A stretch of DNA of 64,000 bases from IMG/VR virus record IMGVR_UViG_3300045988_052681, one strand, 5' to 3'. Numbering within the stretch: the first letter of the stretch is position 1; the number at the start of each line of letters is the position of its first letter. Below, one piece after another: positions 6,303 through 55,369 of this stretch. Below the pieces are notes generated by a model that was not told the origin of the DNA, made no database searches, and worked only from the letters and a program-made list of their open reading frames with translations. The stretch comes from a virus. The translations under genes and the position numbers were made by a program.

Positions 6303-7223
6303 TTAGAACTTACCCTCATTCGGTTGTAGACAAATCAAGCCTTCATTTCTCCACATCTCCACACACTTACAATTGTCTTCAAGTACGAAAGGTATATAGA
6401 ACTTGCCTTTGATATTGTCCTCATACAGTTTCTTCTTACATATAGGACCAGCAGTAAAGCTCTTAACAGGACGCATGAGAAGTATGTCAGGATGCAACCA
6501 ATTGTTCTCTAACCACTGTTCCGTAGCTTTACGAACTTCAGGAGTATCCTCTCTACCAGTTAGAATTATTAACTTAGCAGGATAATTATCACAGAAGTTT
6601 CTAATAAGCTCAATGACAGGAGTAATAGGCTCATCAGTAAGCATACCTTCAGCTGCACCTTCTCCGTAGAAGGGACGGCCACTAGTATTCAAACATACAG
6701 TTGCATCCATATCTACAATGATTGCTGCTGGTAGGTTAGTATCTTGAACTAATGACTTAGCTTTGGCTGCCATAATTTCTTCATGGATTATGAAGTCCTT
6801 ATAACGCCTCCAAGTTTGCCTAATAACCTTCTCTCCAATTGGATTAGGTCTCATGGCATCCCGGCGAATACATTCTTCAACAGGAGTCCAAAAGTCCTTA
6901 TACTCTATATCAACATGTATTCCCTTGTCCTTCTCTATATTGGCACATAGAGTTCTAATCCATTCATCCTCTTTGGGATTCAGATTCATATTATCAACTA
7001 CTACATCGTAACCTTTAATCAAAGCAAACGTTATCATATTAGCTTTAGCTTCAGTAACTAGCTTCTCCCTATTAGGAACCCAGTAATCACCTAACATGTT
7101 ACGAATATCATCATTGTTAAATCTTACTCTGTGCTCTGGGTCTTCGTGACACCATTGTTTAGCCCAAGTAGATTTACCTGAACCTTGAATACCTCTACAA
7201 ATTATTAATACTTGCTTGTCCAT
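6303..7223 (-). CDS. polynucleotide 5'-kinase / 3'-phosphatase (T4 Pnk-like)
   Basis: N-terminal P-loop GIQGSGKST (kinase); C-terminal HAD motif IIVDMDATV (DxDxT phosphatase); same two-domain order as T4 PseT. Confidence 0.8.
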   Translation of the reverse strand: MDKQVLIICRGIQGSGKSTWAKQWCHEDPEHRVRFNNDDIRNMLGDYWVPNREKLVTEAKANMITFALIKGYDVVVDNMNLNPKEDEWIRTLCANIEKDKGIHVDIEYKDFWTPVEECIRRDAMRPNPIGEKVIRQTWRRYKDFIIHEEIMAAKAKSLVQDTNLPAAIIVDMDATVCLNTSGRPFYGEGAAEGMLTDEPITPVIELIRNFCDNYPAKLIILTGREDTPEVRKATEQWLENNWLHPDILLMRPVKSFTAGPICKKKLYEDNIKGKFYIPFVLEDNCKCVEMWRNEGLICLQPNEGKF

Positions 7224-7853
7224 AAAGATTCTTTAAAATTGAGTTTAAATTCGGCAGTATCCTCCCAATCCATTATATCTTCCGTGCTTTCGTAATCAAT
7301 CAGTTCGTATTCCCGACTTAAAACGTCTCCATCTTCTTCATAATAGTCGTTGTCCTTTATTCTAGTAATGGCATCCTCAACATTTTCTGCCTGAATCTTT
7401 ATATGTTCTTTAAGTGCCACTCTTGCTATTGATGTTACTACAAACTCAAATGTTTCCATTAATCAATATTACATAAGACATCACTGAATCCGCTATAATC
7501 TAAATCAGTTAAAACGTCCCGTATAAACGATATATAATCTCTTGTGCTTTGCAAATCTCGTATATACTCTTTAGTGGATATTATCTCCTCTATAGATTCA
7601 GGATTACCATAACAGAATTTCTCATATTCTGTACGTCTTGTTTCCGCCTTAGTAATGTCAGCATCAATGTCTTGAATTACTGATTCAACATCACTAATAG
7701 TGAGTTTAGTATACTTCTCCTCATTACCAGCATATGCTATATTGAGATTGTCAGAGAATCTCTGATATACCTCATTAGACCTACTAAATGATTGAAGTAG
7801 TAACTTCTCCTCCGGATGTGCCCTAGGCACTAAGTAAAATGATAAATAACTAC

Positions 7854-8630
7854 TCATTTCTCGTTAGTTGGCTTAAGCCATAAATTGGTCTTACTAAAGA
7901 TATAATCTCTAAGTCTTGGAAGGTAATCAAGATATGTTAAGGTTCTAATGGTATTGCATCTAAAACACTTAATCAGTTCCTCTCTAATTCTCTCCTCTGA
8001 CACTACTGGCATTTTAGAATCATAATCATATAACACCATAGCTTGCCAAGTTGTTTGCTCTATTGTGAATCTCTTAGTAACCGCAAACCTAATGGCTCTA
8101 AGTATCCTAAGAGGGTCATCATCGAATGTTGTTACAGGGTCGAGGGGAGTTCTTATCAAAGCATTCGTTATATCATGCTTACCATAAAAGTAGTCAATGA
8201 TTTCTCCAGTATCAGGGTCTTTAGCCATAGCATTAACAGTGAAATCTCTACGTGATAAATCATCATACAAGTTACCTGGTTCTACTATGGGAGTTCTAGT
8301 GCCTGGGACATATCCTACTTCCTTTCTAGCCATTACGAAGTCTGCCACACCTTGATACTTGTATCCTTCTGGGAACTTAGCACGTATAGTATAGCAATCT
8401 GGAGTTACTAAGAAGATTTCAAAGCCTTCTTTCCTCAAATGACTTTCTAACATAGTGAAGACTGCGTTAGCAGTATTTGGATAGATTCCGTCCACCAAAC
8501 ATTGTGCTTCCTCTATGTTACGCAGTAACTCCTCACTGGGTACAGCTACATAATCAACATCCTTATTGGTAAGACCTAGGAGTTCATCTCTAATCTTACC
8601 GCCTACTTCATAAAATTTAAAATCTTCCAT
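7854..8630 (-). CDS. class II nucleotidyltransferase (CCA-adding enzyme / poly(A) polymerase head domain)
   Basis: VGGKIRDELLG...KDVDYVA (GGxVRD + DxD) and RRDFTVNAMA motifs of CCA-adding enzymes; 258 aa minimal head-neck. Confidence 0.65.
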   Translation of the reverse strand: MEDFKFYEVGGKIRDELLGLTNKDVDYVAVPSEELLRNIEEAQCLVDGIYPNTANAVFTMLESHLRKEGFEIFLVTPDCYTIRAKFPEGYKYQGVADFVMARKEVGYVPGTRTPIVEPGNLYDDLSRRDFTVNAMAKDPDTGEIIDYFYGKHDITNALIRTPLDPVTTFDDDPLRILRAIRFAVTKRFTIEQTTWQAMVLYDYDSKMPVVSEERIREELIKCFRCNTIRTLTYLDYLPRLRDYIFSKTNLWLKPTNEK

Positions 8631-9587
8631 TAATAAAAATAATCTGATTCAACTTTCTGAATAATCTTCTCTCTGCTTCCTTTTAGACTATAGCCACTAC
8701 GTTCGTAACAACTAAAGTATTCTAAAACTTCATGTACTAAAAGATTAAAACTATGATTCTCGAAGTGATGCCCATCCACATCAATAGACCAACCACATCC
8801 ATCTAACCACCTATACACATTTAGATGCTTACCATTAACATGGTTTGGAAGGTTTGCTAATAGTGACAGATTATCCATTCTCTAATATTATAACAATTTA
8901 CCAGTCATACACACAACCGATTACTTGCTTCTCTTTAACGAACTCATATAGTTCATTAATAGCTTCATCCCACGTTAGGTCAGGAAATTGGGCATACTGT
9001 GATACATTACCATCTTCATCCTTGAAATCGGCTATGTCTAAGTAGTTCATATACTTGATTGTTGAATATCTGTCAAAGTAATCATAGCTTTCCAGGAAAG
9101 CAGGAAGTTCTATCCAAGGAGCTACTGGTAATAAATCATAGACAGTCAGCAGGTCAAGAGCTACCTCCTTAGAGATAGCTCCTTCATCTGCCTTCTTAAA
9201 TATTTCTTTAGCGAACTCAGCCTTGAACTGGTTCAATTTCTCCTTCATCGACTCTAGAGTCCGAATTTCTTTGTCTAAGTCTTCCATCATATATTAATAT
9301 GAGTTTATCAAATTCTTCATCTGTTCCTTCATAAGGAGTAATTTTATAGTTGTAGTAATCTTCCCACTCGATACTATCAACTACCTGTCTTATAGCTTCT
9401 TCAGTCATGTTATGATATTCATAACCTTCTGTAGTAACTATAAACGAATCTGGAACTATACCAACTGCGATTTCGAAAGCATATGCATCAGCTGCATTGT
9501 TCATGTCTTCATCAAACAAGCTCTCTGCGTATGCAGCATATCCACTATATGTTTCGAAATCATTAATGCAAGTTATAATATACCTGT

Positions 9588-10976
9588 TCATTGGTCAGAT
9601 TCTATATCAACTTCACCTTTATCTAATGCTTTAGATTCTGCAAATAAGAATCTATTACATTTTAACTTATATGCCCCAGATAGACCGTCTTCTATACGAA
9701 TCACTATACCTTCATGCGGCACATCATTGTGACATTCCGGAGATAGTTCTTCCATGAAGAAATTCTTGTCCTCGGCTAATCTTTGTATGAAATTCTCATT
9801 CCAGTGTTCAGATATAGATATATCCGGATATAAATCCTTCGCATATCCATAATACAGTTCTGTTACCGGAGTGAGGCCCTTATCTTTACACCATTGTTGC
9901 ACTTGTCTAGCACTAAATTCATACACTATTCCGTCAGGATTAGTATAAGTAATACGGTACACTCTGATACCAAAATGCACATTATACTTATATGGAGTAG
10001 TTTGAGTAGTAGGGTCGTATATTGGCATATCGTAACCATAATCATAAGCTTTACCTCCCATTGACTGAATTGCTCCTCCAGTAGGAAGCCAGCCTATAAT
10101 TTCATAATAGAGAGTTAATCCTTTAGTTAGAAATGGCTGTAATACTTTATGAGCTTCTCCCCACACATCACAGCCATAGTAACCCTCACTAACTTCCTTA
10201 TTATAATATTGGTTCTTTACAACCTTTCTAGAGGACCACAGATAGTCATATGCAGTGTCAGGCACATAGGTAAGCCAACCAGCTACCTTGTCTTTCCACT
10301 TCAATTGCCTTTTGCATAACACATCTGCTGATATTCCAGACGTGCCATGAACTTTACTAGTAATACTAATAATGTCCTTTGGCTTAATTATCCATGGACA
10401 CTTCTTAATAAGAATAGTATCGTAGTGGAATCTAAACTGATTGTCAACTAACTTGCTCAACCCTTTAGGCTGTTTACCAGTTCTAGTTTTATTACTAGAG
10501 CCAGAAGTTCTATTCTTTACTACGTACTTCTTACAAATAAACAGGTTTCCTACCCTATCAAATTCAATGCCGGCATCTATTCCAGTTACAGCTTCGGTAT
10601 GTCCAAGAGAGCTTATCCATTTAGTAATGGACTCTATAGACATAATAAATCCTTCTGAAACATGGCCCTGCAACTTAATAATCTTCACTCTTCCGTTATC
10701 TTCGAAATACCCAGGTGCTGCTTCCTTGTCAGCATTCAGCTCAATGTGTCTGAACTGGTTATTAGCTGACAAGAAAGAATAGTCAATAGCACATCCTATA
10801 GGGAAATACACATACATTCCAGGTTCTGTATCTTTACTAACCGAAATAGTATATCCGTCTATATGAGCACATTTAAGACGCTCGCACTTAGGGTTTGGGT
10901 GTGGTGTAAAATCGTGGATTTCCACAATCTTAGCACAATAGTTAATATTGATTTTAGGTGATTGATTTAATTGCAT
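9588..10976 (-). CDS. ATP-dependent RNA ligase (Rnl2/Rnl5-like nucleotidyltransferase domain with N-terminal extension)
   Basis: Motif I SKVHGTSG (KxHGxx), motif III YYEIIGW, motif IV HEGIVIRIEDG (EGxVxR), motif V AYKLK. Confidence 0.6.
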   Translation of the reverse strand: MQLNQSPKININYCAKIVEIHDFTPHPNPKCERLKCAHIDGYTISVSKDTEPGMYVYFPIGCAIDYSFLSANNQFRHIELNADKEAAPGYFEDNGRVKIIKLQGHVSEGFIMSIESITKWISSLGHTEAVTGIDAGIEFDRVGNLFICKKYVVKNRTSGSSNKTRTGKQPKGLSKLVDNQFRFHYDTILIKKCPWIIKPKDIISITSKVHGTSGISADVLCKRQLKWKDKVAGWLTYVPDTAYDYLWSSRKVVKNQYYNKEVSEGYYGCDVWGEAHKVLQPFLTKGLTLYYEIIGWLPTGGAIQSMGGKAYDYGYDMPIYDPTTQTTPYKYNVHFGIRVYRITYTNPDGIVYEFSARQVQQWCKDKGLTPVTELYYGYAKDLYPDISISEHWNENFIQRLAEDKNFFMEELSPECHNDVPHEGIVIRIEDGLSGAYKLKCNRFLFAESKALDKGEVDIESDQ

Positions 10977-38687: not shown

Positions 38688-41064
38688 AGCTTAAATTCCT
38701 TTAGTTAACTCTTCTAATCTAGTTACTTCTTGTTTGTAATCTTGAATATATTCTTTCAGAGACATGGCATCTGGGTGCTTACACTCTATTCTATAATCCG
38801 CTATTCTTTGAAGACATGCAGATATGGGAAGTCCATAACCAATTACTTTAAACTCCTGACGTTCTCCGTCCTTAGATTTAATAGTCTTTAGTATAGATAG
38901 GTCCCAGAAGTGTAAATTGTCACCTACAGATTCCATTCTAAAGTCAGCTTCTTCAATAATCATACTTGATTATCCGTAAAGTTAGTATTAGTTTAATCTG
39001 ATTGTTCTTCTAATACCTTACCTATTAGCCATAAGTATAAGAATGGTGATATGACTGGACATGTCATCCACCAACCTACATCCTCCTCTACGACTTCCCA
39101 GAAGTATTCTTCATCCAAGTCGTAGTATGCAAGCATGTAGTTCAGTACAATGTTTAGTAAGTAAGACACACCATACAGTGCGAGCACTATTAATATTACA
39201 ATCACAATTTCTCTTTCTCTACTCTAAATTGACAACATAGTTTCTGCAACTCGAGTATGACGGGTTCTAAGGTACTAACACCCTTAACCAACACTGCTCG
39301 TTGGTCTACCGTCCTTCTAGCTAAATGGGATTGGACGCTGGAAACAGCATCTTCATATCTCTTCTTAATAAGGTCTCTATTCTCGAAATACTTGGGAATT
39401 TTACCATGCAGATATATTAAAGCATCTAATGCCTTAATAAGTTCCTTATGGCTCATAGAAGTAGATATTCTGTCATAAATAAATACATATCTATCAACTC
39501 CGTCTGGAATGATATTTATATATTTATCAGTTTCAGTTCCTTCTCTTCCTACATGGTCTGCTAACCTCACAGTAGCAGAGAATCCGTTCAATGTGTAGTA
39601 CTCCGAATCTCCCTTATAATTAGTAGAAGTAAACCCCTTCCTCTTTAGCCACGCTTTTAGTTTGCTCAACCCTCTCATCTTGTTTAATCTTCTTTTCCAC
39701 CTTCCGAAATATCAAGTCTCCGTCAAGTGGACATCTACACTCCATAGTACAGTCACTGGCTTTAAAGTAACAGCCAAAGCACGCGCAACCACTGTCAACG
39801 ATTTCCACCGGACTACCGTTTACAGTGATAAGGTCTCCTGCCTGTAAAATGGGTATTAGTTCATCGTCTTCATATTTAAACCTCTGCATATCTAAAGTTA
39901 AAAAAGAAGGGCCAAACCCAGACAATCACTAGAGTAGACCTTACCTCATTAGAAGTAAAGAATAATCTAATAACTAATCTGAATTTGACCCTAAACGGCA
40001 GTACGAATATCGTTCTGCGCGATTAGCACTACATTAAATATAACGTAGCCTAAAGTCCGTTACCATAAACTGATAACAATAATGCCAATGCCTGGCATTA
40101 GGTGTGTTGCTAAAAGCAACGAAGAGGAGCCTACACCCCCCCCCTAGTGATATTCTGGCTGGAATGTCTATTCCATAACCTATCACCATACATAAGAACT
40201 ATTCAAAGTAGTCTGGGAACTTATCTTTTAATATTTCAGATATGTCCACGCCAGTCAGTTCAGCCATAGATAATTCTTCCAACATTGCGTCTTCAGAATC
40301 GTCCACACTACCGTCAGCGCTATCAATAAGATTGAGCAGTAATTGAGCTTTCTCATCAGTCAGCCCGTCTTGCGCCCATTTACTTACTACTTCTGCAAAG
40401 AACTCATCGAACTCGTAAGAAGTCTGCTCATCTTCATCAGCGATTACATTCTTCTTAGCAAACAGTTCTTTGATGTCTTCATCTGTAATAGTTCCGGCTT
40501 TATCATAAGCCGCGTTCAATGACTCTATAAGAGAGTCTTGTTCATCGAATGTCATTGTCGTTAACAATTAATGTTAAGAACATGTGAATAGTCTATTCAC
40601 ACCAACCCTCAAGGGCTTAAGATAATGTATGGTAATCAAATCACCATTACAGCAGTGGGGACTGCTTAAACAGGCATTTCACTCTCAATTATGCCTGTGG
40701 TTATGTTAGAATAAAGAAATTTACTTCTTCCAGGATATGAATAGATATTCTCCAACTAAGCCGGGATATCCTTCTTTGTCGATAACCTTAACGAAGAATC
40801 GTTTATCTTCGTAGTATTTAAGGATTTCATCCTTGGCTTTAGCTACATCATCATTCAAATCCATAACAAGACTAAAGTAATTGTTCTCACTCTTAGCCTT
40901 AATAAGTTGGTCAGTAGTATCTAGAAACCTCTTAACTAGAGTTTCTTGTGTCACCACTTCATTGTAAGTGGCAACTGAATATGCCTCGTCCGCATTCATA
41001 GATTCACCTTCCAACAATTTACCAAAATTAAAGATATTCTTCATAATAACTAATAATTGGTTTG

Positions 41065-41138
41065 TGGTCCAGACGAGATTCAAACTCGTGACCTTCCCTT
41101 TAGGAGAGGGACGCTCTATTCTACTGAGCTACTAGACC
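41065..41138 (-). tRNA. tRNA-Arg (anticodon CCT)
   Basis: Cloverleaf GGTCTAG/CTGGACC acceptor, GCTC/GAGC D-stem, anticodon loop CTCCTAA, T-arm ACGAG-TTTGAAT-CTCGT. Confidence 0.8.
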
Positions 41139-41146
41139 CCTTTACG

Positions 41147-41512
41147 TTATACGTTAATACTCCCAGTATGTCTGCCTTTTATTTTAACAGAATTAGCATC
41201 GATGTCTCCTTGTACATTACCACCAACCTCAATACTGTTAGCTTCTATAGAACCTCCCACATTGCCTTTAACTTTAACACTATTACCATGTACAGTAAAT
41301 GCGTCTCCGTCAATATCACATGTGTTGCAGTTAAGTTCTTTTACATTACCAGTAAAACTGATATGTACACTATCCTTATTCGTTTCAGATATTAATTTAC
41401 CATTTACGTAAATTTTACGCTTGATTTGTGAGATAGTGATATTGTCCTCTTCAATGTCATAGGACTCATTATCAATAAATAACTTATTCATGATTCTTTT
41501 TATCCAGTTCAT
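41147..41512 (-). CDS. bactofilin-like (beta-helical repeat) protein
   Basis: Repeating GNV.../ANS... hydrophobic-Gly pattern (VKVKGNVGGSIEANSIEVGGNVQGDIDANSVKIKG) typical of the bactofilin DUF583 fold. Confidence 0.45.
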   Translation of the reverse strand: MNWIKRIMNKLFIDNESYDIEEDNITISQIKRKIYVNGKLISETNKDSVHISFTGNVKELNCNTCDIDGDAFTVHGNSVKVKGNVGGSIEANSIEVGGNVQGDIDANSVKIKGRHTGSINV

Positions 41513-42111
41513 CTTCCTTCGTAATACTTAATCAGTTTATCAAATGCTTCAATCCTAGCATTGTGACCCTTCTCGTCATCGGGAGTCCACCAGAATGCCT
41601 TACCATACCTGTCTTTAGGCGCACCTAAAAACTCTCTATTGAACTCGGGGAACATGGCAACTACATCACATTCATCGTAGATGTTGATTCCTCGTTCGGT
41701 TCCAGCCATAGCATGCTCGATACAAAAGCACATTCCCCAGTATTCTGAATGGTCTTCAAACAGCTTCTTAGCTTTTAGTAAGATAGCGTGCTTATTGATT
41801 CTTTCTGTGTACCAATGGATGAGCTTATCAAAAGCTACAAGCCTATGTTTCTTCTCATCTACTGGCCACCAGAAGACAAGTCTAGCCACTTCTTCTTGTT
41901 TGACATTACCTCCTAGAAACTCTGGATTAAACTCCGGAATTAGTGTTACTAATTCATTATAAGAGGGAGGTATTCCTTCTTTAAACACTCCGTTGAATGC
42001 TTGCTTCATATAGTGGCACATACCACCATTCTTATCACTGCCTGGTTTTGTATCTTTATCATACAAGTCTTTAGCAGTCTTTAATCTTTTAATAATTTCT
42101 AAGTTAGTCAT
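41509..42111 (-). CDS. hypothetical protein with internal tandem duplication
   Basis: Two copies of a EFNxEFLG...FWW(P/T)xDEK(K/G)H...AFDKLI(H/K)(W/Y)Y module. Confidence 0.4.
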   Translation of the reverse strand: MTNLEIIKRLKTAKDLYDKDTKPGSDKNGGMCHYMKQAFNGVFKEGIPPSYNELVTLIPEFNPEFLGGNVKQEEVARLVFWWPVDEKKHRLVAFDKLIHWYTERINKHAILLKAKKLFEDHSEYWGMCFCIEHAMAGTERGINIYDECDVVAMFPEFNREFLGAPKDRYGKAFWWTPDDEKGHNARIEAFDKLIKYYEGR

Positions 42112-42131
42112 CTCTTTCCTTATTAAGTTAG

Positions 42132-42203
42132 TAGTCCCAGGCAGAGTCGAACTGCCATTTCAGGTTCCGTAGACCAGCGTTCTATCCATTGAACTATGGG
42201 ACC
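42132..42203 (-). tRNA. tRNA-Arg (anticodon ACG)
   Basis: Acceptor GGTCCCA/TGGGACT (G1-U72), D-arm GTTC-AATGGATA-GAAC, anticodon loop CTACGGA (one T-T mismatch in stem), T-arm GGCAG-TTCGACT-CTGCC. Confidence 0.7.
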
Positions 42204-42990
42204 ATACAGGAAGCAATTCCGATTTAACGGCCGCCCTTGCCAGTATCACGTACTGGGCTTTTCACGTGGACGGTCTGTCAGCATAACTCACAGTATTACT
42301 TACATGCTTCCTTTAAAGTTTAGCCTCTTCCAGCGCAAGAGCACTTATAGTCACTCTTCGCCATAGTACATCAAGTATAGCACCTGCTGACGCAAACCAT
42401 ATCTACGTGTAACCACGTTAGCTTCCGCTCTCCTGGAAAGCGCAGCATTGATACTCCTCTTGAGTTTATCGGCATCAAATAGCAAACCAGTCACTCCTAC
42501 TAATCCATTAGGCTCATCAGCGCAGATGTAATCTACTGCTTCAAAGAGCTGGGCTTTAGTTTCAGAGCTGTTCACCTTCTGCCATTTCTTTATTTCTTTC
42601 TCAAAGTCCATAATCAATTAAGTGCTTCGAGTTCTTTAGCCAATTCTTCCAGAGACTTACCTTCGAGTTCAGCGTCTTGTTTCTTAGCCATAAGGTCAAG
42701 AATCTTCTGACGCTTAGCTTTCTTCTCACTTTCAAGTAGACGGTCTTCCTGTTCTTGCAACTTAACATCAATAATGTGTTTTGCAATATTGAATTTCAGT
42801 TCAAGTTCGGTAGTGTCCTTAGTCCGGGTTTTGATGAAGCTTTCAGTTTTAGACTCTTGCAATTTCTTGTTAAGAGCAATTGCAATATTGTCAAGTTGAA
42901 TTAAGGGCAAATCCCACAAATCTTCAACAGAAAGAACTCCACGTTGCGTGTTGAAACGCAACTTCATTCTAGATGCTTTCTCAAACATAA

Positions 42991-43929
42991 TTATAGCATT
43001 AAATTGTTAATACGTTTATATTCTTCAAACACTTTATCCTCTGATTCTTCTCCCCACATACTGTGAATGAGAACACCATAAGCACAAGGCTGGTACACAA
43101 TAGGGTCTACTGCCTTCTTAGTGATTGTAACCTCTGGATTGTTTAATTGACCAGGAGGGCAAGCTACAAATAGCTCATTTCTACCTATCTTAACAGCATC
43201 AAAGGAAACTATGTTAGGATAGCTAAAACCCTTTACATCAGCAGGAAGACCAGGATTCTTGTTAACTATACTGGACAGCCTGAGTGTGCCTTCTATATCA
43301 GGACCAACAACTATATGATTATGTGATTCTATGTATTTCTTCAGATTGTTCAACATAGTTTCGCTGTCATTATATCCATAGTTGATACCTGTAACATAAT
43401 AATATGCTCCATTAGTACACTCCAACCCCAAATCAGAGAACATTGGTCCTTCACCATTAAGCTTGCGCTTAACTTTTATGATTTCTCTAATATTACGGTC
43501 AGGAATCACTCCAGTGTACTGTTTTAGTAGACCTTTGACAAGTTTATACTTCTTACAAACATCATCAAATTGTTTAGAGCCAACCAGAAGAGTACTCTCT
43601 CCGAATACCTCTCTTGCACGCTTTACGAAACTAAACAAGTTCTTAGCGCGCATGGCATCCAGAGCTATCTGATTATATTCCGATATTTTAGCTTGCAATA
43701 ACCTAGCATTCTTTGAGCTGCCCAGTCCAGCATCAACCAACGTGTTGTATTCTCTTACTAATGTATCTCTATTAGGAATATCAACTGATGTCTTGGAAAC
43801 AGAACGTAGATATTCCTCCATACATAAAGCAAGAGCCATAGCTATGTTGGACTGAATAGTCATCACCGGCACGTCAACCACTTCTGGAGTTATAACTTCA
43901 GAATCATTGCGTTTTAGAAATCTAAACAT
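42991..43929 (-). CDS. hypothetical protein, paralog of 45946..46812
   Basis: Shares KKYKLVKGLLKQYTGVIPDRNIREI and C-terminal GVLIHSMWGEESEDKVFEE segments with the other copy. Confidence 0.45.
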   Translation of the reverse strand: MFRFLKRNDSEVITPEVVDVPVMTIQSNIAMALALCMEEYLRSVSKTSVDIPNRDTLVREYNTLVDAGLGSSKNARLLQAKISEYNQIALDAMRAKNLFSFVKRAREVFGESTLLVGSKQFDDVCKKYKLVKGLLKQYTGVIPDRNIREIIKVKRKLNGEGPMFSDLGLECTNGAYYYVTGINYGYNDSETMLNNLKKYIESHNHIVVGPDIEGTLRLSSIVNKNPGLPADVKGFSYPNIVSFDAVKIGRNELFVACPPGQLNNPEVTITKKAVDPIVYQPCAYGVLIHSMWGEESEDKVFEEYKRINNLML

Positions 43930-45941
43930 CAGAAATTGACTTTTAAAGTTCTACTAAATGTTCCGTCCACTTTAACAATAACGGAATTACGCATAGTAGA
44001 TGAGAATCCTAATCCACTCAATTGATGTTCTTGGTAAGGAGTCTTCATCTTATCAGCTAGAACCTCAAATACCTTACGGTGAGGAGTTAGCTCACTGTTA
44101 AGATATTCGTTAAAGAATCCACGAACAGGCTCCGGATTCTTGCAATCATCCAACATAAAGAAGTAATGTTTATTGCCAATACCCTGCTCATCCCAATAAT
44201 TGGGAGACAGCATCATCACGTTCACCTTATGGAACTTGTTAGTATCAATATTCCATATGCCTATTGACGAATTGCTAGTACTGGGTATTAGCTCTCTTAT
44301 TTGGATGCCTTTAGATTTACTATAAGTAATCTCGGCCACTTTAACATTCTCTTTATGTTTAACGGGTTTGTCATAGACAAATTGTCGGACTTCTCCATTG
44401 TGTTCTATTTCCAATGTAAATCCTGTATCAACAGATTCTCTACAATGAAAGTTATTAACATACACAACATACTTACCTTCAAGCATCTTACGTTCGTCAA
44501 CCCATATGATGTTCTCAACGGGTTTGCGAGTTTTGCCATATCCGGCATTTTCATCCACGTCTAGCTTACCACCACTTCTGCCGATTCTGTTGGAGTAATA
44601 AATTTCAAGATTATTAGGTTCAACGACATGCAAATCCAAGTCATCATAGTTAGACCATGCCAACGAACATCTTAAGAAGCCTTCAGTCTGACCACCAGCA
44701 GCTCTTACTTTCTCTTTAATAGAATCAGCTACTCCTCCATTATATGTCCAAGCAAAGTTATTTGGCCATTTAAATAGATTCTTAGCATCCTTATTAACAG
44801 GAGCTGTAAGAGTTACTAAGTTATTAGACAGCCTACTCTCCATTAACACTTCTATGTTAGTGGCAGTGGGTACCACATTAGCAATGAAATCATCAATGCT
44901 AATTTCAGTTAACTTGTCAAACTTCTTAGGATTAACTTTAGTGTCTGCGGCCAGTTCCTCGAATATGTTTCCGGCCATTACCTTCTTGGCATCACGGTTA
45001 GCGAATATAACATTGTTGACTGTTATATCCTCTAAGGCAGCATGTCTACGAGGTAGAGAATCCATAAGACCTAGTTCCTGCACTTTCTTCTGTGCTTCCT
45101 CAATCATTCTTTTAGTAACAATTGACTTAGGTCTTTGATAGTTCTCTGGAGCCATGATACGTTCGTATGCAGTCACACAATCGTCCAATTCAAGTCCTGA
45201 TGATATATTTACCAACAATGTACCAATTGCCGTATTACGAATGCGTGCACATCCTACACGATTGAAGTTTGCCCAACACCAGTTGTCTTTCTCTTCATCA
45301 GGTAATGAATCATAGTGTCTTTTATGACCCAGGAATACACTTAAGTCATTTTTAAACTGTTCTCCTCTATATAAAGCATTCTGACCTATTAAGTCCAGAA
45401 CTGTTTCTATAGAATCGACAGTTAATTCCTCCAGTGCACGTTTGAACACTTCCTTAGTTGTGCGTAAAGTCCCCATTACAGCAGATACGGATTCAGTTCC
45501 TGTATACACCAATTGATTTGGCATATGATAATAGAGATGATTCCAGGTAATTACTTTAGGACCTTGCAAACTGTCAATATAGACATTGTTTCTATCAATT
45601 CCTAGTTCATAATCACGAGTGATAAAAACATCTACAACTGGTTTTGATTTCACTAATGCATCGAGATTTCTAGCTACAGTAGCATAAGGTTCATCCAACT
45701 GTAGGTTCTCCCACATGGTTACTACTTTATTGTCTTTAATGGCGACAACTCTACCATAATGTCTGATATAATGTTTACAATTGTTGCAATTATGAGACTG
45801 TCTCTCTTCCTCCGGAAAGGAATTAAGATAACAATCCCATAATGCATCCTTGTCTACATTAGTCAGAAAGAGCATGTCTGCACCAGCAGCTAGTCGATTA
45901 AACTGCGCATGGACTGCTCTTTTAAACTTGACAAATTCCAT
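43929..45941 (-). CDS. hypothetical large protein (670 aa) with N-terminal Cys/His cluster
   Basis: SHNCNNCKHYIRHYG zinc-binding-like cluster; no other motif recognised. Confidence 0.45.
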   Translation of the reverse strand: MEFVKFKRAVHAQFNRLAAGADMLFLTNVDKDALWDCYLNSFPEEERQSHNCNNCKHYIRHYGRVVAIKDNKVVTMWENLQLDEPYATVARNLDALVKSKPVVDVFITRDYELGIDRNNVYIDSLQGPKVITWNHLYYHMPNQLVYTGTESVSAVMGTLRTTKEVFKRALEELTVDSIETVLDLIGQNALYRGEQFKNDLSVFLGHKRHYDSLPDEEKDNWCWANFNRVGCARIRNTAIGTLLVNISSGLELDDCVTAYERIMAPENYQRPKSIVTKRMIEEAQKKVQELGLMDSLPRRHAALEDITVNNVIFANRDAKKVMAGNIFEELAADTKVNPKKFDKLTEISIDDFIANVVPTATNIEVLMESRLSNNLVTLTAPVNKDAKNLFKWPNNFAWTYNGGVADSIKEKVRAAGGQTEGFLRCSLAWSNYDDLDLHVVEPNNLEIYYSNRIGRSGGKLDVDENAGYGKTRKPVENIIWVDERKMLEGKYVVYVNNFHCRESVDTGFTLEIEHNGEVRQFVYDKPVKHKENVKVAEITYSKSKGIQIRELIPSTSNSSIGIWNIDTNKFHKVNVMMLSPNYWDEQGIGNKHYFFMLDDCKNPEPVRGFFNEYLNSELTPHRKVFEVLADKMKTPYQEHQLSGLGFSSTMRNSVIVKVDGTFSRTLKVNF

Positions 45942-45945
45942 AATC

Positions 45946-46812
45946 TTATAAAGGTTTAATATTGTCGAATATATTGTCTTCGGCTTCTACTCCCCATTTA
46001 GAGTGAATCATTACCCCTATTGGAGTTACTTGAAATACAAATGGGTCATTATTGATAGGAATAATCTTCCTTTCCGGAACTGTAAACTGCATCGTTTCAT
46101 TCATTTCTTCAATAGGAGCGGCAATGAATAAGTCAGCACTGCTACATTCTTTTGAATCAGCAATGTTCACGTCATGTGCCTTGGCTTTATTAAGGATATG
46201 AAAGAATGGATATGCATTCATTCTAGCCTTATTTCTACTCAAATACATAAGTCCAATATGGGAAGGTTCCTGCCTAATGAAGTACCTTCCAACCGGATAG
46301 GACATGCTATCAATAGGCATAGGGTGAGTAGCAACTTGCATACCAGTAACATACCGTAAAGGTGAACCGTTTCCGCTATAGTTAACATACTCATTTGCTT
46401 CAAGTGCTTGAGCAGTGGCCATTACCTTAGAGATTTCATCAATGTTCTCGTCAGGCACAGAACCTTTATAAGCTGATAGTCTTCCAACAACTAATCCATA
46501 CTTAACATTCAGATTAATGAAATCCTCCTCCTTAAGTATCAATGAGCCAGGGAAATGTCTTTGCAAAAAGCTATAACATTTTAAGACTTTAAGGTCCTCT
46601 TCCGAAGTGATAGCATCACCTACTTCTTTAGAATTAGTAAATCCTAAAGCTTTCAGTTTGACAGCCTTATCAACTAGTTGATGATTCGGATTCAGACCCT
46701 TAATAGTCTTCATGTACTCTACAGCCATTAGAGTATAAGCTAATTGCACTTCTTGGGCTGTGAATCTCTTTGTGCCTACAGACGTATCTGTAGAAGGACT
46801 AAAATTGTTCAT
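45946..46812 (-). CDS. hypothetical protein, paralog of 42991..43929
   Basis: KYGLVVGRLSAYKGSVPDENIDEI and C-terminal GVMIHSKWGVEAEDNIFDN align with the other copy. Confidence 0.45.
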   Translation of the reverse strand: MNNFSPSTDTSVGTKRFTAQEVQLAYTLMAVEYMKTIKGLNPNHQLVDKAVKLKALGFTNSKEVGDAITSEEDLKVLKCYSFLQRHFPGSLILKEEDFINLNVKYGLVVGRLSAYKGSVPDENIDEISKVMATAQALEANEYVNYSGNGSPLRYVTGMQVATHPMPIDSMSYPVGRYFIRQEPSHIGLMYLSRNKARMNAYPFFHILNKAKAHDVNIADSKECSSADLFIAAPIEEMNETMQFTVPERKIIPINNDPFVFQVTPIGVMIHSKWGVEAEDNIFDNIKPL

Positions 46813-46932
46813 AATTACTTTTGTTTAACTGAACCTGGTCTGGTAGTAGCTCTCTTAAATGAATCAGAGTGCTTATCCCACCAAGCCTGTCGGTCTTTAA
46901 GACGTTGTACTTTCTTCTTGTATTTCATAGGT

Positions 46933-47340
46933 TTATCCTATTTCGTTACTAGCATTATAAGCAAGCTTGTCGGCTTCCTTATTATGTTCATCACTTGCGT
47001 GACCTTTACACCACTCAACAGACACTACTTTATGCCTGTTCACAGCCTTATCAAGACGTTCCCACAAATCAGTATTGGCTTTCCTCTTCCACCCTTTAGT
47101 AAGAGTTCCTACAATATACATAGAATCTGTTACTATTGTAATTTCAGAAGGTTCCTTTATGGATTCCAGGGCAACTATGGCAGCCATTTGCTCCATTCGC
47201 TGATTGGTGCTGTTCTTATACATCTTACTGTATTGGAATATCTTCTTGTCATCCTCTAAAATGACAAAGCCTATTCCCCCTTGATTTCTCGCAGGAGAAT
47301 AGGCACCATCACAGTATATTCTGTACTTATGCGTCGGCAT
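46933..47340 (-). CDS. rnh: ribonuclease H (RNase HI)
   Basis: YCDGAY..., TNQRMEQMAAIVAL, TDSMY, ANTDLW, WCKGHASDEHNKEADKLA = RNase HI catalytic DEDD framework; start placed at MPTHKY. Confidence 0.8.
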   Translation of the reverse strand: MPTHKYRIYCDGAYSPARNQGGIGFVILEDDKKIFQYSKMYKNSTNQRMEQMAAIVALESIKEPSEITIVTDSMYIVGTLTKGWKRKANTDLWERLDKAVNRHKVVSVEWCKGHASDEHNKEADKLAYNASNEIG

Positions 47341-47857
47341 TAGGATTCTCAACAAAATCCTCATCATCCTCATCTTCTTCAGTTTCGGATATGACATCTT
47401 CATCAATAAGGTGCTTAACCCACATACCTAAGATAAAGATGACATAGAATTTGTCTTCCTCCTGTTTGTAGTTAACCTTGTCAGAGACTTCATTAACTAC
47501 ATCTAACATTGTGAACTCCTCTTTAGCCATAGCATCATCAGCTATAGCAGACATTTCTTCTACATAAGGTCTAGCCTTCTGCATTGCTTCGTCAAAACTC
47601 TTTACTAAGGCTATGCCTTCATCACCTCTAATTTGCATAGCAACAGATAGAGGTTGTTGCAATTCATTTCTAAAGAAGCCCAAATAGAAAGCTTTCTCTA
47701 CATTTCCGTTCACGAAGTCATTGAAAGATTTAGCTTTCATTACTTCTTCTACTTTGAAATTAATTTCTGATACGTCTCTGATTTTGTCCATAATGTTATG
47801 ATAGCAACCCACCAATCTTCTCGGCCATGGCTGTTGCTTTGTTAGAAACTGCTTCAA
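47327..47857 (-). CDS. hypothetical acidic protein
   Basis: 176-aa ORF with D/E-rich C-terminus. Confidence 0.4.
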   Translation of the reverse strand: MKQFLTKQQPWPRRLVGCYHNIMDKIRDVSEINFKVEEVMKAKSFNDFVNGNVEKAFYLGFFRNELQQPLSVAMQIRGDEGIALVKSFDEAMQKARPYVEEMSAIADDAMAKEEFTMLDVVNEVSDKVNYKQEEDKFYVIFILGMWVKHLIDEDVISETEEDEDDEDFVENPNADA

Positions 47858-48079
47858 GGTTTGCAGCTTCAGTTTGTAATTCGATAATCTCTTGTTCTCT
47901 AACCTCTTTCTCTGCTTGAGCTTTAGATGCTACCTCTTTAAGATTGGTAACAGCTTTCTCAAATACATCAATAATCTTAGCTGATTCTTCGGCTAGTGAG
48001 GTACTTGTTACTTTAGCCGGTTCGGCTGATTGTTTCTTTCCAAACATCTTATAGGATTAGAATTACAGGGTTCAGGGTG

Positions 48080-48162
48080 AGCGGCTGTCGGGAATCGAAC
48101 CCAATCTATCACTTGTGCGCATACTAAAATTAGCGATGTGCCCTCCTTTACACTACAGCCGC
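48080..48162 (-). tRNA. tRNA-like gene with canonical acceptor/T-arm but no foldable standard anticodon arm (83 nt)
   Basis: Perfect 7-bp acceptor GCGGCTG/CAGCCGC and T-arm TTGGG-TTCGATT-CCCGA; internal 50 nt (…CGCTAATTTTAGTATGCGCACAAGTG…) gives no 5-bp/7-nt anticodon hairpin in any register. Confidence 0.4.
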
Positions 48163-48303
48163 ATGGAGCAGTGGTTAGAATACTAATAGTCAAACACTAA
48201 TAGTCATTCCTAAAGAGGTGTTCTGCAACCACCCCACAGTCAGCGCTAAACTGCACGTCTTATTACATACGCTCAACTCTGCTTTAGTTGTCATCGCTGG
48301 ACT

Positions 48304-49506
48304 TCACTTAACCCAGATTCCAGCCTGGTCTATACTCTCTCTAGCCATTTCTTGAATAACTCTTTCATAATCAATCCGTTTTACTAATGGATATAGCTGC
48401 CCATATCCGTGATTAACTGTTATATACCTAGATGTTATAGACAGACGATAGTGAGCATTGTTAATTTCGTTAGTAAGATACTCCATAGTTACAGGAGTTA
48501 CTCCGTCACTAAATGTAACAGTTATGCCTGCTTCTATATCTTCTACACTCTTAGTAAGAGCATCTAAGCTACTTTGAATTTCTGCATATCTAGGATTAGG
48601 AATCTGCTCCGTCTCTAAATGCATAAAATGCTTAGATGTTTCACCTATATAACCTCCTTTGCTACATGGAATCGGAAGATAAACCCAGTTGTTATCAAAC
48701 TTAACAGCTTGTTCATAAGCATGAGTTCCAGGTCTAAAGAGTTGCTGGTACGTATCGACTTTAACTACTTCTCTAGTCCCAGGAATTCTACCCTGCTTGC
48801 CGTCTAACCACCACCTTATATAGTCACGAGCATCACGCACATGATATACTGGCAACTCAACTGGAGTACCATTAACCATACACCAATAATGACCTAGCAA
48901 CCTCGGTCTATAAAAGTTAGAGTCTGTTCCATTGGAGTCAGGATTAGAATTGGCAAATCCATAACAGTAATCATAATAGTCTGCTGCTTTATGAGGTTTA
49001 GCAATCTTACCAAACTTGGGCAAAGCATGATTCCTGTTCTCCTTCCATTGCTTGGTGCTAATGTTATATCGACGACCCTTAGGAGTCTGTTCAACAGATT
49101 GTACTAATCCATTATCATCAACTCTAAAGAAAGCTTGTCTCCATCTATAATCGGTGAAGTAGTCGTCTAGGTATTCAGTTTTATCAGTATTCTTAATTGG
49201 CTTAATCCACTCATTCCAGGCTTTGGCTAGCTCTTTATAAGGCTTACCTACATACTTGGCTATGAATTTCACAATTCTGGATTCTTTAACGTATCCATAA
49301 CCGTGGTCCCAAGTTTTGTCTAATACCTTTCTACCGTACCCTCTCTGTGCTGCTACTTCTTTAGACACTCTCAAATTGAAATCAGCATCAAAATCAGCTA
49401 GCGTCACTTTAGTAAGGTGTCTAGGATAGTAACTTGGATTACGAGTATGCTTGCTTTTACGTTTATACTCTTTCCTATGACCAAGTTTAAGTCTTCGTTC
49501 ACTCAT
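48304..49506 (-). CDS. hypothetical protein (basic N-terminus)
   Basis: 400-aa ORF. Confidence 0.45.
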   Translation of the reverse strand: MSERRLKLGHRKEYKRKSKHTRNPSYYPRHLTKVTLADFDADFNLRVSKEVAAQRGYGRKVLDKTWDHGYGYVKESRIVKFIAKYVGKPYKELAKAWNEWIKPIKNTDKTEYLDDYFTDYRWRQAFFRVDDNGLVQSVEQTPKGRRYNISTKQWKENRNHALPKFGKIAKPHKAADYYDYCYGFANSNPDSNGTDSNFYRPRLLGHYWCMVNGTPVELPVYHVRDARDYIRWWLDGKQGRIPGTREVVKVDTYQQLFRPGTHAYEQAVKFDNNWVYLPIPCSKGGYIGETSKHFMHLETEQIPNPRYAEIQSSLDALTKSVEDIEAGITVTFSDGVTPVTMEYLTNEINNAHYRLSITSRYITVNHGYGQLYPLVKRIDYERVIQEMARESIDQAGIWVK

Positions 49507-50421
49507 GTTATAGTATTTTAGTTACTTTACCAAATACGGATTTGGTCCACCCATTAATCTTACCATGATTGTTACCTATAAGAACTCCTCTGTCTCCCTT
49601 AGCTTTGACTAAGTGAGTATAGTATCTACCTTTAACTTTGCAGAATACTATATCACCTACCTCTACATCGCTAAGATTTATAGGACTCAAGACATGCTCT
49701 TGGCCAGATTTGATTAGAGGAGTCATAGAGTTTCCCTTCTCTGAGGTTCTGAAGGATTTTCCTTCGGTCAGTAGTTTCTCCTTGTAATACATCGGCTTTA
49801 GACATTAAATATACAAAGTTTAATCTCTCTTCCATGGTAGAACCATTACTTATTCTTTCAAACAAGGTTAGTTCTTGCCCATTTTTGTAGTTATAGTAAG
49901 ATATCAACTCATTATATCTGGCAGTTTTACTATTCAGTGAAGCTATAGTCATTGGATATCTTCTTAGCACTACTCCCCTATATAAATCAACAAGTTCACC
50001 CAATGAGTTGGCAATCTTTAATAACCTAACTACATTGGGTGAACCGTGTTTCTTGTACCTAATAGCATAACTCTCCAGAGCAGCATCCCAATCATGGAAT
50101 ACGTGTTGAGCTTGAGTTAAATCAATCTCAACTATTTTACGCAGGAACTCTTCTATAGTCATATTAATTAGATATTGTAGGTGATGTTAACTTGTCAATT
50201 AGATTCTTCATTGCTTCTTCACCAGCAGCAAAACCTTCAGAATACCCGATTTTATATGCCTTCTCTATAGATACAGCAACAGCTTCCATGACGCTATTGC
50301 CCTCATACTGTTTCTTTAATTCTTCTAATAGTTCTTTCATAAATCCTCCTTCCTTTAATTATTAGTAGCTTGAGTGGGATTCGAACCCACACGTCCATTT
50401 CTGGACATCAAAATACATCTG

Positions 50422-50506
50422 TGACGCAGAAGGGAATCGAACCCTCAATCCCATAAAGGGCAACGCATTTTAAGTGCGTTTCGTATACCAGTTCCGACAC
50501 TGCGCC
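50422..50506 (-). tRNA. tRNA-Leu (anticodon TAA), class II
   Basis: Acceptor GGCGCAG/CTGCGTC, 3-bp D-stem, anticodon arm ACGCA-CTTAAAA-TGCGT, long variable arm TGCCCTTTATGGGATT, T-arm GAGGG-TTCGATT-CCCTT. Confidence 0.8.
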
Positions 50507-50512
50507 ATCTTA

Positions 50513-51007
50513 TTATTTACCCATGTTCTTGCCACGGTAGTTATCAGTAAAAGCATGACAATTTGGGCAGAGTAATTGTAAATTCTCTGCTCTCAAATCA
50601 TCCTTAATGCCGTTTACATGATGTAATTCTAGAGCAATAGGTTTGCCCATCCACTCTGTATTACCGCAACATTCACATTTGTATTCTTTCACACATTCCT
50701 TTAACAATCTGTCTTTTAAATGATATGTACTTCTATAAGAGGAATGCTCTATTAGAATAGATTCTAACGGTTGTGCTCCTTTTATAGGCTTGTACCTATC
50801 TCCTTGATTCCAAGCTTGTCCAGTCATGTGAGATGTATCTAAGTTAAGTTCACTAATCTTACGCTTTACAGTCTCGTAGTTACTGCCAGCAGGTTTAAGT
50901 CCTAGCTTTCTCATTACTTCTGCATGAGATAGGCTGGTCTTTACTGCTTCAATGAATTGTTCGTCTGTCCATTTTCTCTTACTCATCCTTGTATATTTAA
51001 TACACAA
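50513..51007 (-). CDS. free-standing HNH homing endonuclease
   Basis: C-terminal CECCGN...LELHHVNG...NLQLLCPNCH HNH/zinc motif; sits between tRNA genes. Confidence 0.8.
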   Translation of the reverse strand: MCIKYTRMSKRKWTDEQFIEAVKTSLSHAEVMRKLGLKPAGSNYETVKRKISELNLDTSHMTGQAWNQGDRYKPIKGAQPLESILIEHSSYRSTYHLKDRLLKECVKEYKCECCGNTEWMGKPIALELHHVNGIKDDLRAENLQLLCPNCHAFTDNYRGKNMGK

Positions 51008-51099
51008 AGATAGTAATTAAATTTGAGTCTACCTAATTCATTAAGTTAAAATTTGTGAACACCTGACGCGTCTACCAATTTCGCCATCAAGCCATACCC

Positions 51100-51276
51100 T
51101 TATACTGACATCATGACCTTGATTGTAACTACAATTATCATTCCTATAGTACTTATAGCAGCTATACTTAAGAATATCTTAACCCATTTAAAGTCACAAT
51201 CCCATATAGTTAGTAACATAGCTATTAATGCAGCCACAAATGCAATGACTACAGTAATCATTAATGCTGTTTCCAT
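51100..51276 (-). CDS. small two-TM membrane protein (58 aa, below ORF-track cutoff)
   Basis: METALMITVVIAFVAALIAMLLTIWD...IAAISTIGMIIVVTIKV: two hydrophobic helices. Confidence 0.3.
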   Translation of the reverse strand: METALMITVVIAFVAALIAMLLTIWDCDFKWVKIFLSIAAISTIGMIIVVTIKVMMSV

Positions 51277-51748
51277 ATCAATCTCTTACTAAGTCTATCC
51301 AATTAATTAGGATATGATACAACCACCTCATAATACGTAATCGCAATAAGTGTCAACAAAATCCTTAGCTTCTTTTAAACCACATTTAGCAGATTCTTTT
51401 ACATGCTTAACTGCTTGCAGTTTGGAACCAGTCTGTACAAACTGTTTCATCTTAAAGAAGTCTTCACATGACAAATCAATTGTATTATTCCAACGCTTCC
51501 TGTATGCAAGCATTGCATCACTATACTCTTGAGGATGTTCTGTCCAGGTAATTTGTTGGTCTAATATAACTGTACAAGTTCCATCAAGTATATCATATTC
51601 TCTAGATTCTACGGTGAATTTACCAGCTTCTAACACTACTATATCAGTAGGAAATGGAATCATCTCTGGTGAGATTGATACCTCTTGTACTACTTTATCA
51701 TCTTTTACAAATTTTACAAACATAATCTTTAAGTATTAATTAATAATG

Positions 51749-51822
51749 TGGCGAGAAGGTGACTCGAACACCCAACCTTGCGATTATGAGTCGCACGCTC
51801 TAGCCAGTTGAGCTATCTCGCC
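51749..51822 (-). tRNA. tRNA-Met or tRNA-Ile2 (anticodon CAT), elongator type
   Basis: GGCGAGA/TCTCGCC acceptor, TAGCTCAACTGGCTAGAGC D-arm, anticodon loop CTCATAA, T-arm GGGTG-TTCGAGT-CACCT; the G1-C72 pair argues against an initiator. Confidence 0.8.
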
Positions 51823-51828
51823 ATTAAT

Positions 51829-51930
51829 AAGAACATAAAGCTCATCGTGTCTACATCGTTACCAATGCAACCTTAATACCTCCCGTTTGCTTCACTGCCG
51901 GCTAGTCTGGCTTTGTCTCCTTATGTTCTT
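51829..51930 (-). ncRNA. structured RNA element closed by a 10-bp long-range stem, upstream of tRNA-Met
   Basis: AAGAACATAA (51829-38) pairs perfectly with TTATGTTCTT (51921-30), enclosing 82 nt with internal hairpin GCCGG-CTAGT-CTGGC; lies in a 320-nt ORF-free region. Confidence 0.3.
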
Positions 51931-53008: not shown

Positions 53009-53090
53009 TAGGGTAGGTGAGACTCGAACTCACACGCCCGAAGACACTTGGGCCTAAACCAAGCCTGTCTGCCAATTCCAGCACTACCCC
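53009..53090 (-). tRNA. tRNA-Leu (anticodon TAG), class II
   Basis: Acceptor GGGGTAG/CTACCCT, D-arm CTG-GAATTGGCAGA-CAG (cf. E. coli Leu GAATTGGTAGA), anticodon arm CTTGG-TTTAGGC-CCAAG, 13-nt variable arm, T-arm GTGAG-TTCGAGT-CTCAC. Confidence 0.8.
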
Positions 53091-55348: not shown

Positions 55349-55369
55349 GTAAAAGGAGTCCGAAGACTC

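Follow-up and report, generated by a model that had tools for sequence, protein, structure and literature searches.

A conserved phage island of RNA-end enzymes that may keep the phage's own tRNAs chargeable

Three genes for enzymes that act on RNA ends lie together in IMG/VR virus record IMGVR_UViG_3300045988_052681, of which we analysed one stretch of 64,000 nucleotides, hereafter called the window: a bifunctional polynucleotide kinase/phosphatase (Pnk), a short class II nucleotidyltransferase (NTase), here called the mini-NTase, and an ATP-dependent RNA ligase. They share the minus strand and span 4,674 bp in total (6303-10976), in a phage that also encodes 14 tRNAs. The reading that we favour, with modest confidence, is that they form a conserved phage RNA-end maintenance island, which would keep the phage tRNA pool chargeable. 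An earlier note on the same DNA had placed the three open reading frames (ORFs) on one strand within 4.7 kb and had named them Pnk, CCA-adding enzyme and RNA ligase; the ORF ends confirm the placement, and Pfam, PHROG and PDB or fold matches bear out all three assignments at the family level. We regard the outcome as a well-supported annotation and not as the discovery of a new type of system. The island is of an already recognised type because phage kits with CCA enzymes and Thg1 have been described before (PMC7824862), and less explored so far are its tight island form, the way an Rnl5 ligase is paired with tRNA-end enzymes, and the mini-NTase family.

9588..10976, minus strand: ATP-dependent RNA ligase, 462 amino acids (phrog_968 and fold match)
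7854..8630, minus strand: mini class II NTase, 258 amino acids, head and neck only, ending in LWLKPTNEK
6303..7223, minus strand: bifunctional Pnk (5'-kinase/3'-phosphatase, T4 Pnk/Pnkp1 type), 306 amino acids (Pfam, PHROG and PDB matches)
41064..63197, minus strand: 14 dispersed tRNA genes (ARAGORN; 12/14 confirmed by Rfam)

By domain and motif criteria, the Pnk is a T4-type bifunctional PNK-HAD enzyme, with both activities predicted. It matches Pfam AAA_33 (2e-14) and HAD_PNKP (2.7e-24, over 143/143 profile positions) as well as phrog_505 'polynucleotide kinase' (7e-59), and it aligns over its full length with Capnocytophaga Pnkp1 (PDB 4xrp, 7e-31) and T4 Pnk (1ltq, 8e-14). In a set of 51 distinct homologs with 55-100% identity, the two motifs of the N-terminal kinase domain, the P-loop GIQGSGKST at residues 11-19 (CRGIQGSGKS in the relatives' alignment) and RFNNDDIRNM at 33-42, are near-invariant, and the nucleophile motif DMDAT of the C-terminal HAD phosphatase domain (171-175) is invariant.

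The ligase, judged from its AlphaFold2 (AF2) model, has the Rnl5 architecture and not that of the Rnl1 type, a relationship that holds at the level of the fold. In this model (predicted local distance difference test score, pLDDT, 83.6), a beta-rich/OB N-terminal domain (about residues 1-150) and a disordered basic linker (158-181) precede a C-terminal NTase domain which extends to the end of the protein and carries no C-terminal appendage; with its OB domain first, the ligase does not have the domain order of Rnl1, where the NTase domain is followed by a C-terminal helical domain for tRNA-loop specificity. A Foldseek search of PDB gave the Naegleria gruberi RNA ligase (NgrRnl) in the top 13 places (E 1e-14 to 6e-13, full length), followed by trypanosome REL1, T4 Rnl2 and archaeal Rnl3, with DNA ligases appearing only at E > 0.04 and T4 Rnl1 missing from the top 50 matches, so that the protein does not group with the DNA ligases. 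It also matches phrog_968 'RNA ligase' (2e-40), and its homologs bear PHROG and Pfam RNA_ligase labels. The Pfam families foreseen by the earlier note were found for the other two proteins (AAA_33 and PolyA_pol), but the ligase itself gave just a weak N-terminal OB-fold match (PHA02142, residues 27-112), and both phmmer and a 39-sequence profile, run against PDB for a sequence link to the solved RNA ligases, returned only spurious antibody matches. Invariant across 39 homologs are K208-x-H210-G211, E292, E422-G423 and K437-x-K439, which by position and pattern would be nucleotidyltransferase motifs I, III, IV and V. More than 370 phage records hold this type of ligase, most of them annotated 'RNA ligase', and phage homologs of Rnl5 have already been noted (PMC7261155, PMC4408790); the closest one outside the clade described below belongs to Prevotella Lak megaphages (42% identity), a weak hint as to the host. 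A second ligase is not needed for DNA because the phage has a separate ATP-dependent DNA ligase at 11969-13177, distinct from the RNA ligase.

For the mini-NTase, the earlier naming as a class II CCA enzyme stands as to the family and as to the motifs of the head and neck, but the body and tail domains that such an enzyme should have are absent. The protein matches the Pfam PolyA_pol head (2.8e-17) and phrog_24229 'tRNA nucleotidyltransferase' (5e-67); in PDB it matches class II CCA- and A-adding enzymes, by sequence as well as by fold, and not aminoglycoside NTases, the best matches being the Aquifex A-adding enzyme and bacterial CCA-adding enzymes, with a bacterial poly(A) polymerase also among them and weak unrelated matches only below E 0.04. 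Invariant in the head are G10, G11, R14, D15, D24 and D26 (motif A, GGxxRD...DxD) and R127, R128, D129, F130, T131, N133 and A134 (motif B, RRDFTxNA), and in the neck D171, D172, P173, L174, R175, R178, R181 and F182 (motif D, DDPLRxLRxxRF) together with S211-E-E-R214-I-R-E-E218 (motif E, SEERIREEL). The protein ends at residue 258, past the neck, while the PDB alignments stop at about residue 231-286 of enzymes of 390-450 amino acids, and Foldseek aligns 240-250 columns. This short form is no artefact of truncation. Searched with a profile, 1.84 billion representatives yielded 413 clusters at E <= 1e-30, and the best 150 of the 413 are mostly 225-265 amino acids long and end where the profile ends; sampled members retain the motifs and share a C-terminal (L/I)WL(K/M)PT signature. 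Most of the homologs in cultured phages are full length (GAP31, 417 amino acids; Myrna, 397 amino acids; Lak-B8; MT836249), and the short form occurs in one 192-kb Microbacterium phage. In enzymes of class II, body and tail domains bind the helices of the acceptor and T-arm and serve to anchor the tRNA elbow (PMC3925840), and the CCA-adding activity of the mini-NTase cannot be assumed because it lacks these domains. Our literature search on truncated class II enzymes and on characterised phage CCA enzymes found nothing specific.

Some further features of the mini-NTase family were seen along the way. Three proteins, P0289, P0363 and P0387, seemingly of high-GC, actinophage-like origin, contain the mini-NTase domain within 478-1652 amino acids, and (R/W)L(x)PT still closes the domain in them. 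Among close relatives of the window, the NTase gene is mosaic, with 86-88% identity against 97-100% for the flanking genes (MT835470.1; loci L016-L020 and L025), and its alignment displays a hypervariable insert at residues 31-67 and a C-terminal half swapped block-wise; this mosaicism suggests recombination or diversifying pressure on the gene.

The tRNA genes (Arg x2, Leu x2, Met x2, Gln, Thr, Asp, Glu x2, Ser, Phe and His) form the array of about 15 that had been announced earlier, although ARAGORN counts 14, and the earlier statement that they do not encode CCA is right, as their 3' tails, read from the sequence, encode it in 0/14 cases. All 14 have C at position 74, with a next base other than C in 13, and against base composition (C frequency 0.155) this has P ~5e-12. 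The idea that C74 is a peculiarity of the window phage was rejected, given that 72% of the CCA-less tRNAs in a background of 586 tRNAs from phage contigs also have it; C74 is common in the background and therefore a general feature, though enriched beside mini-NTases, where 200/211 (95%) of CCA-less tRNAs carry it vs. 188/261 in the background. Phage tRNA arrays sort into discrete classes, namely all-CCA, C74-only and T74. It is known that C74 pairs with the L15 G of RNase P and that CCA blocks RNase Z (PMC1874595); as a candidate explanation, genes ending at C74 may retain the L15 pairing with RNase P, and the absence of C75 would avoid the block of RNase Z.

Two of these tRNAs have features of their own. 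The tRNA-His gene encodes a G at position -1, and the window has no Thg1-like gene. The tRNA-Thr(UGU) gene (57835-57918, minus strand) is 84 nt long, with a long variable arm that includes a stem and with U as the discriminator; such a class II-like shape is normally restricted in bacteria to the tRNAs for Leu, Ser and Tyr.

The linkage of the three enzyme genes was followed in a clade of 80 IMG/VR loci whose NTase is 69-99% identical to that of the window. Pnk follows the NTase at a distance of 3-1568 nt in 79/80 of these loci (the remaining one is a truncated contig), the ligase is found upstream of the NTase in 78/80, and all three genes are present in 77/80, always on one strand; this clustering exceeds chance. 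A Thg1-like gene, matching Pfam Thg1 and Thg1C of the 3'-5' polymerase family, adjoins Pnk in 37/80 loci (within L003-L082). The clade shows three arrangements, set apart by where PolA lies and by whether Thg1 is present, and the NTase-Pnk adjacency has outlived these rearrangements, since it was kept despite the relocation of PolA and the insertion of Thg1. The NTase behaves as an optional component of the island, and some 185-kb relatives have ligase-Pnk-Thg1 without it. No tRNA was found within 10 kb of the NTase in 20 relatives, nor near the NTase in the Lak phages and the Microbacterium phage, nor in the rest of MT835470, and a search for divergent tRNA arrays by means of a PurZ-like gene (see below) retrieved only relatives 98-100% identical.

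Outside this clade, we examined 128 mini-NTase loci from diverse environments (ORFs of 204-291 amino acids). A Pnk-, Rnl5- or Thg1-like gene lies within 10 kb on the same strand in 30/128 of them, with Pnk <=1.5 kb away on the same strand in about nine, and in Lak-A2, a Prevotella megaphage, a Thg1-like gene (L086, 11620-12270) lies 2.7 kb from an Rnl5-like ligase; the association of the mini-NTase with repair genes thus recurs, but it is far from universal. tRNA genes are found within 10 kb in 44/128 loci, with the nearest at <3 kb in 21/128. When arrays with three or more tRNAs were compared, those encoding CCA in the majority of their genes made up 1/24 beside mini-NTases vs. 34/70 in the background (Fisher P = 5e-5), which consists of phage-contig arrays picked by a generic D-arm motif, some of them host tRNA arrays that border prophages. 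The mini-NTase thus goes with phage tRNA arrays that lack CCA, and the simplest job for it would be the finishing of the phage's own tRNAs.

From family membership, the work of the island could be pictured as follows, each step being a prediction. Pnk would turn 2',3'-cyclic-phosphate or 3'-phosphate ends and 5'-OH ends, which are those produced by metal-independent RNases, into 3'-OH and 5'-phosphate ends, and the Rnl5-type ligase would then seal breaks whose ends are held in a helical context, for instance in a nicked tRNA with its halves still together. The likeliest routine job of the mini-NTase would be to complete CCA on the 14 tRNAs that the phage itself encodes and whose genes run only to N73-C74, and it could also restore damaged CCA ends; in many relatives, the Thg1-like 3'-5' polymerase encoded at the same site may mend tRNA 5' ends. 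Taken together, the island would sustain a chargeable pool of phage-supplied tRNAs in infection, also under host nuclease attack on tRNA.

Several points weigh against this maintenance reading. The Rnl5 relationship of the ligase stands at the fold level only, with 14-16% identity and with profiles that did not reach NgrRnl. Characterised Rnl5 enzymes seal duplex nicks that have RNA as the 3'-OH strand and act only weakly on single strands (PMC4408790), and their natural substrates have not been established in the literature (PMC4408790, PMC7261155); since the members of the family favour nicked duplexes, tRNA is a substrate that we infer for the ligase. Concerning the mini-NTase, the AF2 model is of moderate confidence (pLDDT 74.8), and the missing body and tail are the tRNA binders of every characterised class II enzyme (PMC3925840). 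The gene order in the clade is partly a matter of shared ancestry because the 80 relatives are one clade, and in L001 and L002 the order is ligase-Pnk-Thg1 (Thg1-like gene at 12958-13743), with no NTase between. Beyond the clade, 77% of the mini-NTase loci have no Pnk, Rnl5 or Thg1 nearby, a share that may be overstated, as the linkage is possibly underestimated because the hidden Markov models of the survey were built from a narrow clade, and the host arrays in the tRNA background likewise count here. Finally, the earlier note took the enzymes and the tRNA array together, and both are indeed in the phage, but they are not physically linked, with the array about 30 kb away from the three enzyme genes.

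The strongest competitor, which was also the conclusion of the earlier note, is a dedicated counter-defence, in which Pnk and the ligase would reverse anticodon-nuclease cuts and the NTase would restore CCA ends removed or blocked by host immunity; we consider it possible but doubtful. Its precedent, the action of T4 Pnk and Rnl1 against PrrC, is established (PMC2610378). In addition, tRNA is a frequent immune target, and toxins are known that act on its CCA end, with MenT/AbiEii extending that end and toxSAS/CapRel-type enzymes pyrophosphorylating it. The presence or absence of the NTase among clade members and the mosaic nature of its gene are typical of accessory arms-race genes, and the NTase adjoins repair enzymes and not tRNA genes. 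Against this, the toxins known to be directed at CCA extend or pyrophosphorylate the end and do not trim it, and CCA addition alone does not remove an extended or pyrophosphorylated end; there is no known host or host nuclease to serve as the target; the ligase is not of the Rnl1/Rnl4 loop-break type (PMC4408790); and the strongest cross-lineage signal, that of the CCA-less tRNA arrays, is explained by housekeeping. Completion of CCA on the phage's own tRNAs fits the cross-lineage data better than the countering of 3'-end trimming and is the more economical reading, with a role in repair or counter-defence as a possible addition; such a counter-defence role of the island would be an inferred one.

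The T4 comparison itself has to be drawn with care. The island has the same type of Pnk as T4, colinear over its full length, together with a phage-encoded ATP-dependent RNA ligase as partner, and by analogy its logic of healing and sealing would be that of T4 Pnk/Rnl1. In contrast to T4, the island ligase is not Rnl1, as it starts with an OB domain and lacks the C-terminal domain for tRNA specificity, the island adds a class II NTase and, in relatives, also a Thg1-like gene, and it has no known cognate host nuclease. The Rnl1 analogy of the earlier note was thus imprecise, Rnl1 being tailored to anticodon-loop breaks. It is functional at best because the ligase appears to be of the Rnl5 type, whereas, according to Shuman's group, it is Rnl1 and Rnl4 that are tailored to breaks in stem-loops (PMC4408790). 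A further parallel may be seen in the RNA repair kits of jumbo phages, which were interpreted by Iyer, Anantharaman, Krishnan, Burroughs and Aravind (2021) as countering RNase effectors (PMC7824862). These kits likewise comprise the phage's own tRNAs, ATP-dependent RNA ligases, PNK-HAD, a CCA-adding enzyme and, sporadically, Thg1; they differ from the present case in that the window phage and its relatives are of about 117-190 kb, smaller than the 200 kb usually asked of a jumbo phage, and originate from the human gut, and in that the genes form a tight island here instead of merely co-occurring in a genome, with the NTase in its mini form. Similar in another way is the Pnkp1-Rnl-Hen1 complex of Capnocytophaga gingivalis (PDB 4xrp), where Pnkp1 is the closest solved relative of the Pnk (E 7e-31) and the RNA ligase is also a separate partner, but Pfam and PHROG scans found no Hen1 methyltransferase in the island, and the ligase is of another family.

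A second alternative, which we take to be rather unlikely, denies any joint pathway: the NTase would only mature CCA-less tRNAs, Pnk and the ligase would act on other substrates, and the adjacency would be an inherited early-gene order. This would agree with the company that the mini-NTase keeps elsewhere, as it goes with CCA-less arrays and is often near tRNAs (<3 kb in the 21 loci given above), with most non-clade loci having no Pnk or ligase nearby, and with the full-length NTases of GAP31, Myrna, Lak-B8 and MT836249, which are unlinked to Pnk or ligase. It accounts poorly, however, for an NTase-Pnk adjacency that persists through the moves of PolA and the insertion of Thg1, and for the approximately nine unrelated loci with Pnk <=1.5 kb away, which are above the ~2% that we estimate for random placement of two single-copy genes in a 150-kb genome.

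A bolder version of the maintenance reading, which we put forward as a speculation with the odds clearly against it, is that the mini-NTase may be specialised in tRNA 3' ends, having evolved alongside phage tRNA genes with N73-C74 as their last bases and adding only C75-A76 or repairing CCA without elbow-measuring domains, and that together with Pnk, an Rnl5 ligase working on nicked tRNA helices, and the Thg1-like enzyme of relatives, it would make up a complete phage system for the maintenance of tRNA ends and breaks. The excess of C74 among the CCA-less tRNAs beside mini-NTases over the background (200/211 vs. 188/261) supports the specialised mini-NTase. With class II tRNA nucleotidyltransferases and poly(A) polymerase, the mini-NTase shares the head, the neck and all catalytic and nucleotide-selecting motifs; it differs from them in lacking the body and tail of ~150-190 residues (PMC3925840), in its C-terminal (L/I)WL(K/M)PT motif and in its variable insert at 31-67. 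Likewise, the island ligase resembles the Rnl5 enzymes NgrRnl and DraRnl in having the OB domain before the NTase domain and no C-terminal appendage, with NgrRnl as the best structural match, but it is ~120 residues longer, its NTase domain contains insertions and is preceded by the disordered basic linker, and its motif I reads KxHG vs. KxDG in NgrRnl (PMC7261155). It further differs in being linked to tRNA-end enzymes, which hints at its substrate.

We give little credence to the proposal of a role in DNA replication or repair for Pnk and the Rnl5-type ligase, at nicks with ribonucleotide 3' ends in RNA-primed or ribo-patched DNA. T4 Pnk acts on DNA ends too, and the island sits between the DNA ligase and PolA in the replication module. 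Nicks at which an RNA 3'-OH meets a DNA 5'-phosphate are sealed by Rnl5 enzymes (PMC4408790), and the loss of DraRnl makes Deinococcus radiation-sensitive (PMC4408790, PMC5397189). But there are two tRNA-end enzymes at the same site, counting the class II NTase and the Thg1-like enzyme of relatives, the phage has a DNA ligase of its own, and no result here points toward RNA-DNA junctions. Equally improbable is an NTase that does not add CCA, that is, a poly(A) or tailing enzyme or a break-repair polymerase replacing lost nucleotides before ligation, as proposed for RlaP NTases: the body and tail are indeed absent, the head and neck do not separate CCA enzymes from bacterial poly(A) polymerase, the gene invariably adjoins Pnk in the clade, and ligase-associated NTases have precedent (PMC7824862, PMC12776372), but the nucleotide-selecting neck motif DDPLRxLRxxRF is fully conserved, a flexible-loop-like segment, judged by eye, appears conserved as well, and the family tracks CCA-less tRNA arrays.

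Among the targets of bacterial immunity, tRNA is now seen as a major one, and phages are known to answer with tRNA genes and repair enzymes; the island provides a clear example from a gut phage. It raises the question of which are the natural repair targets of Rnl5 ligases, given the genetic tie to tRNA-end enzymes, and also that of how a class II nucleotidyltransferase could act on tRNA without the tRNA-binding body and tail. If the complete maintenance system is true, it would supply the long-missing physiological substrate for Rnl5 ligases; and if the mini-NTase is a compact CCA- or CA-adding enzyme, it would inform how template-independent polymerases measure their substrates and might become a small tool for RNA 3' ends.

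Between the three enzyme genes, there are five small ORFs, and the genes are packed with overlaps of 1-19 nt.

9217..9591, minus strand: small ORF o124, whose start overlaps the ligase stop by 4 nt; no Pfam or PHROG match; kept in window-type relatives
8898..9290, minus strand: small ORF o130; no Pfam or PHROG match; kept in window-type relatives
8630..8878, minus strand: small ORF o82, overlapping the NTase start by 1 nt; no Pfam or PHROG match
7459..7857, minus strand: small ORF o132, overlapping the NTase stop codon; adjoins the NTase in 57/80 relatives (blastp across loci)
7205..7459, minus strand: small acidic ORF o84, with no significant family match

The ORF o132 was considered as a split-off body/tail domain of the NTase and rejected, as hhalign gave a probability of 0.5% against a full-length phage NTase and there was no PDB, Pfam or PHROG match. 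A scan of the island for terminators and promoters found no internal terminator, with a performance no better than on shuffled sequence; the island is probably one transcription unit within a block for replication and nucleotide metabolism. In several relatives, additional insertions separate NTase and Pnk, or the Pnk ORF calls are interrupted. The surroundings, all on one strand, encode ThyX, PolA, a helicase, an anaerobic ribonucleotide reductase, a primase-like protein and homing endonucleases, the island lying between the DNA ligase and PolA; in fact, every identified gene of the window and all 14 tRNAs are on the minus strand. The window is ~97% identical to MT835470.1, an unannotated phage of 117 kb from human faeces, and the anaerobic ribonucleotide reductase (19159-20943) is compatible with an obligately anaerobic gut host. 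Homing-endonuclease-like ORFs, all on the minus strand, are found at 13852-14547, 18198-18980 and 50513-51007 (types HNH_3, GIY-YIG and HNH), two of them within the replication module and one beside a tRNA gene. Inside the tRNA array lies a PurZ-like ORF (55370-56437, minus strand, 355 amino acids), a short homolog of adenylosuccinate synthetase, and no DatZ or MazZ partner was identified among the ORFs neighbouring it. It matches Pfam Adenylsucc_synt (9e-35, profile positions 1-277 of 416) and phrog_1211 '2-aminooxy adenylosuccinate synthetase' (5e-46), which suggests that the phage may produce 2-aminoadenine (Z) DNA.

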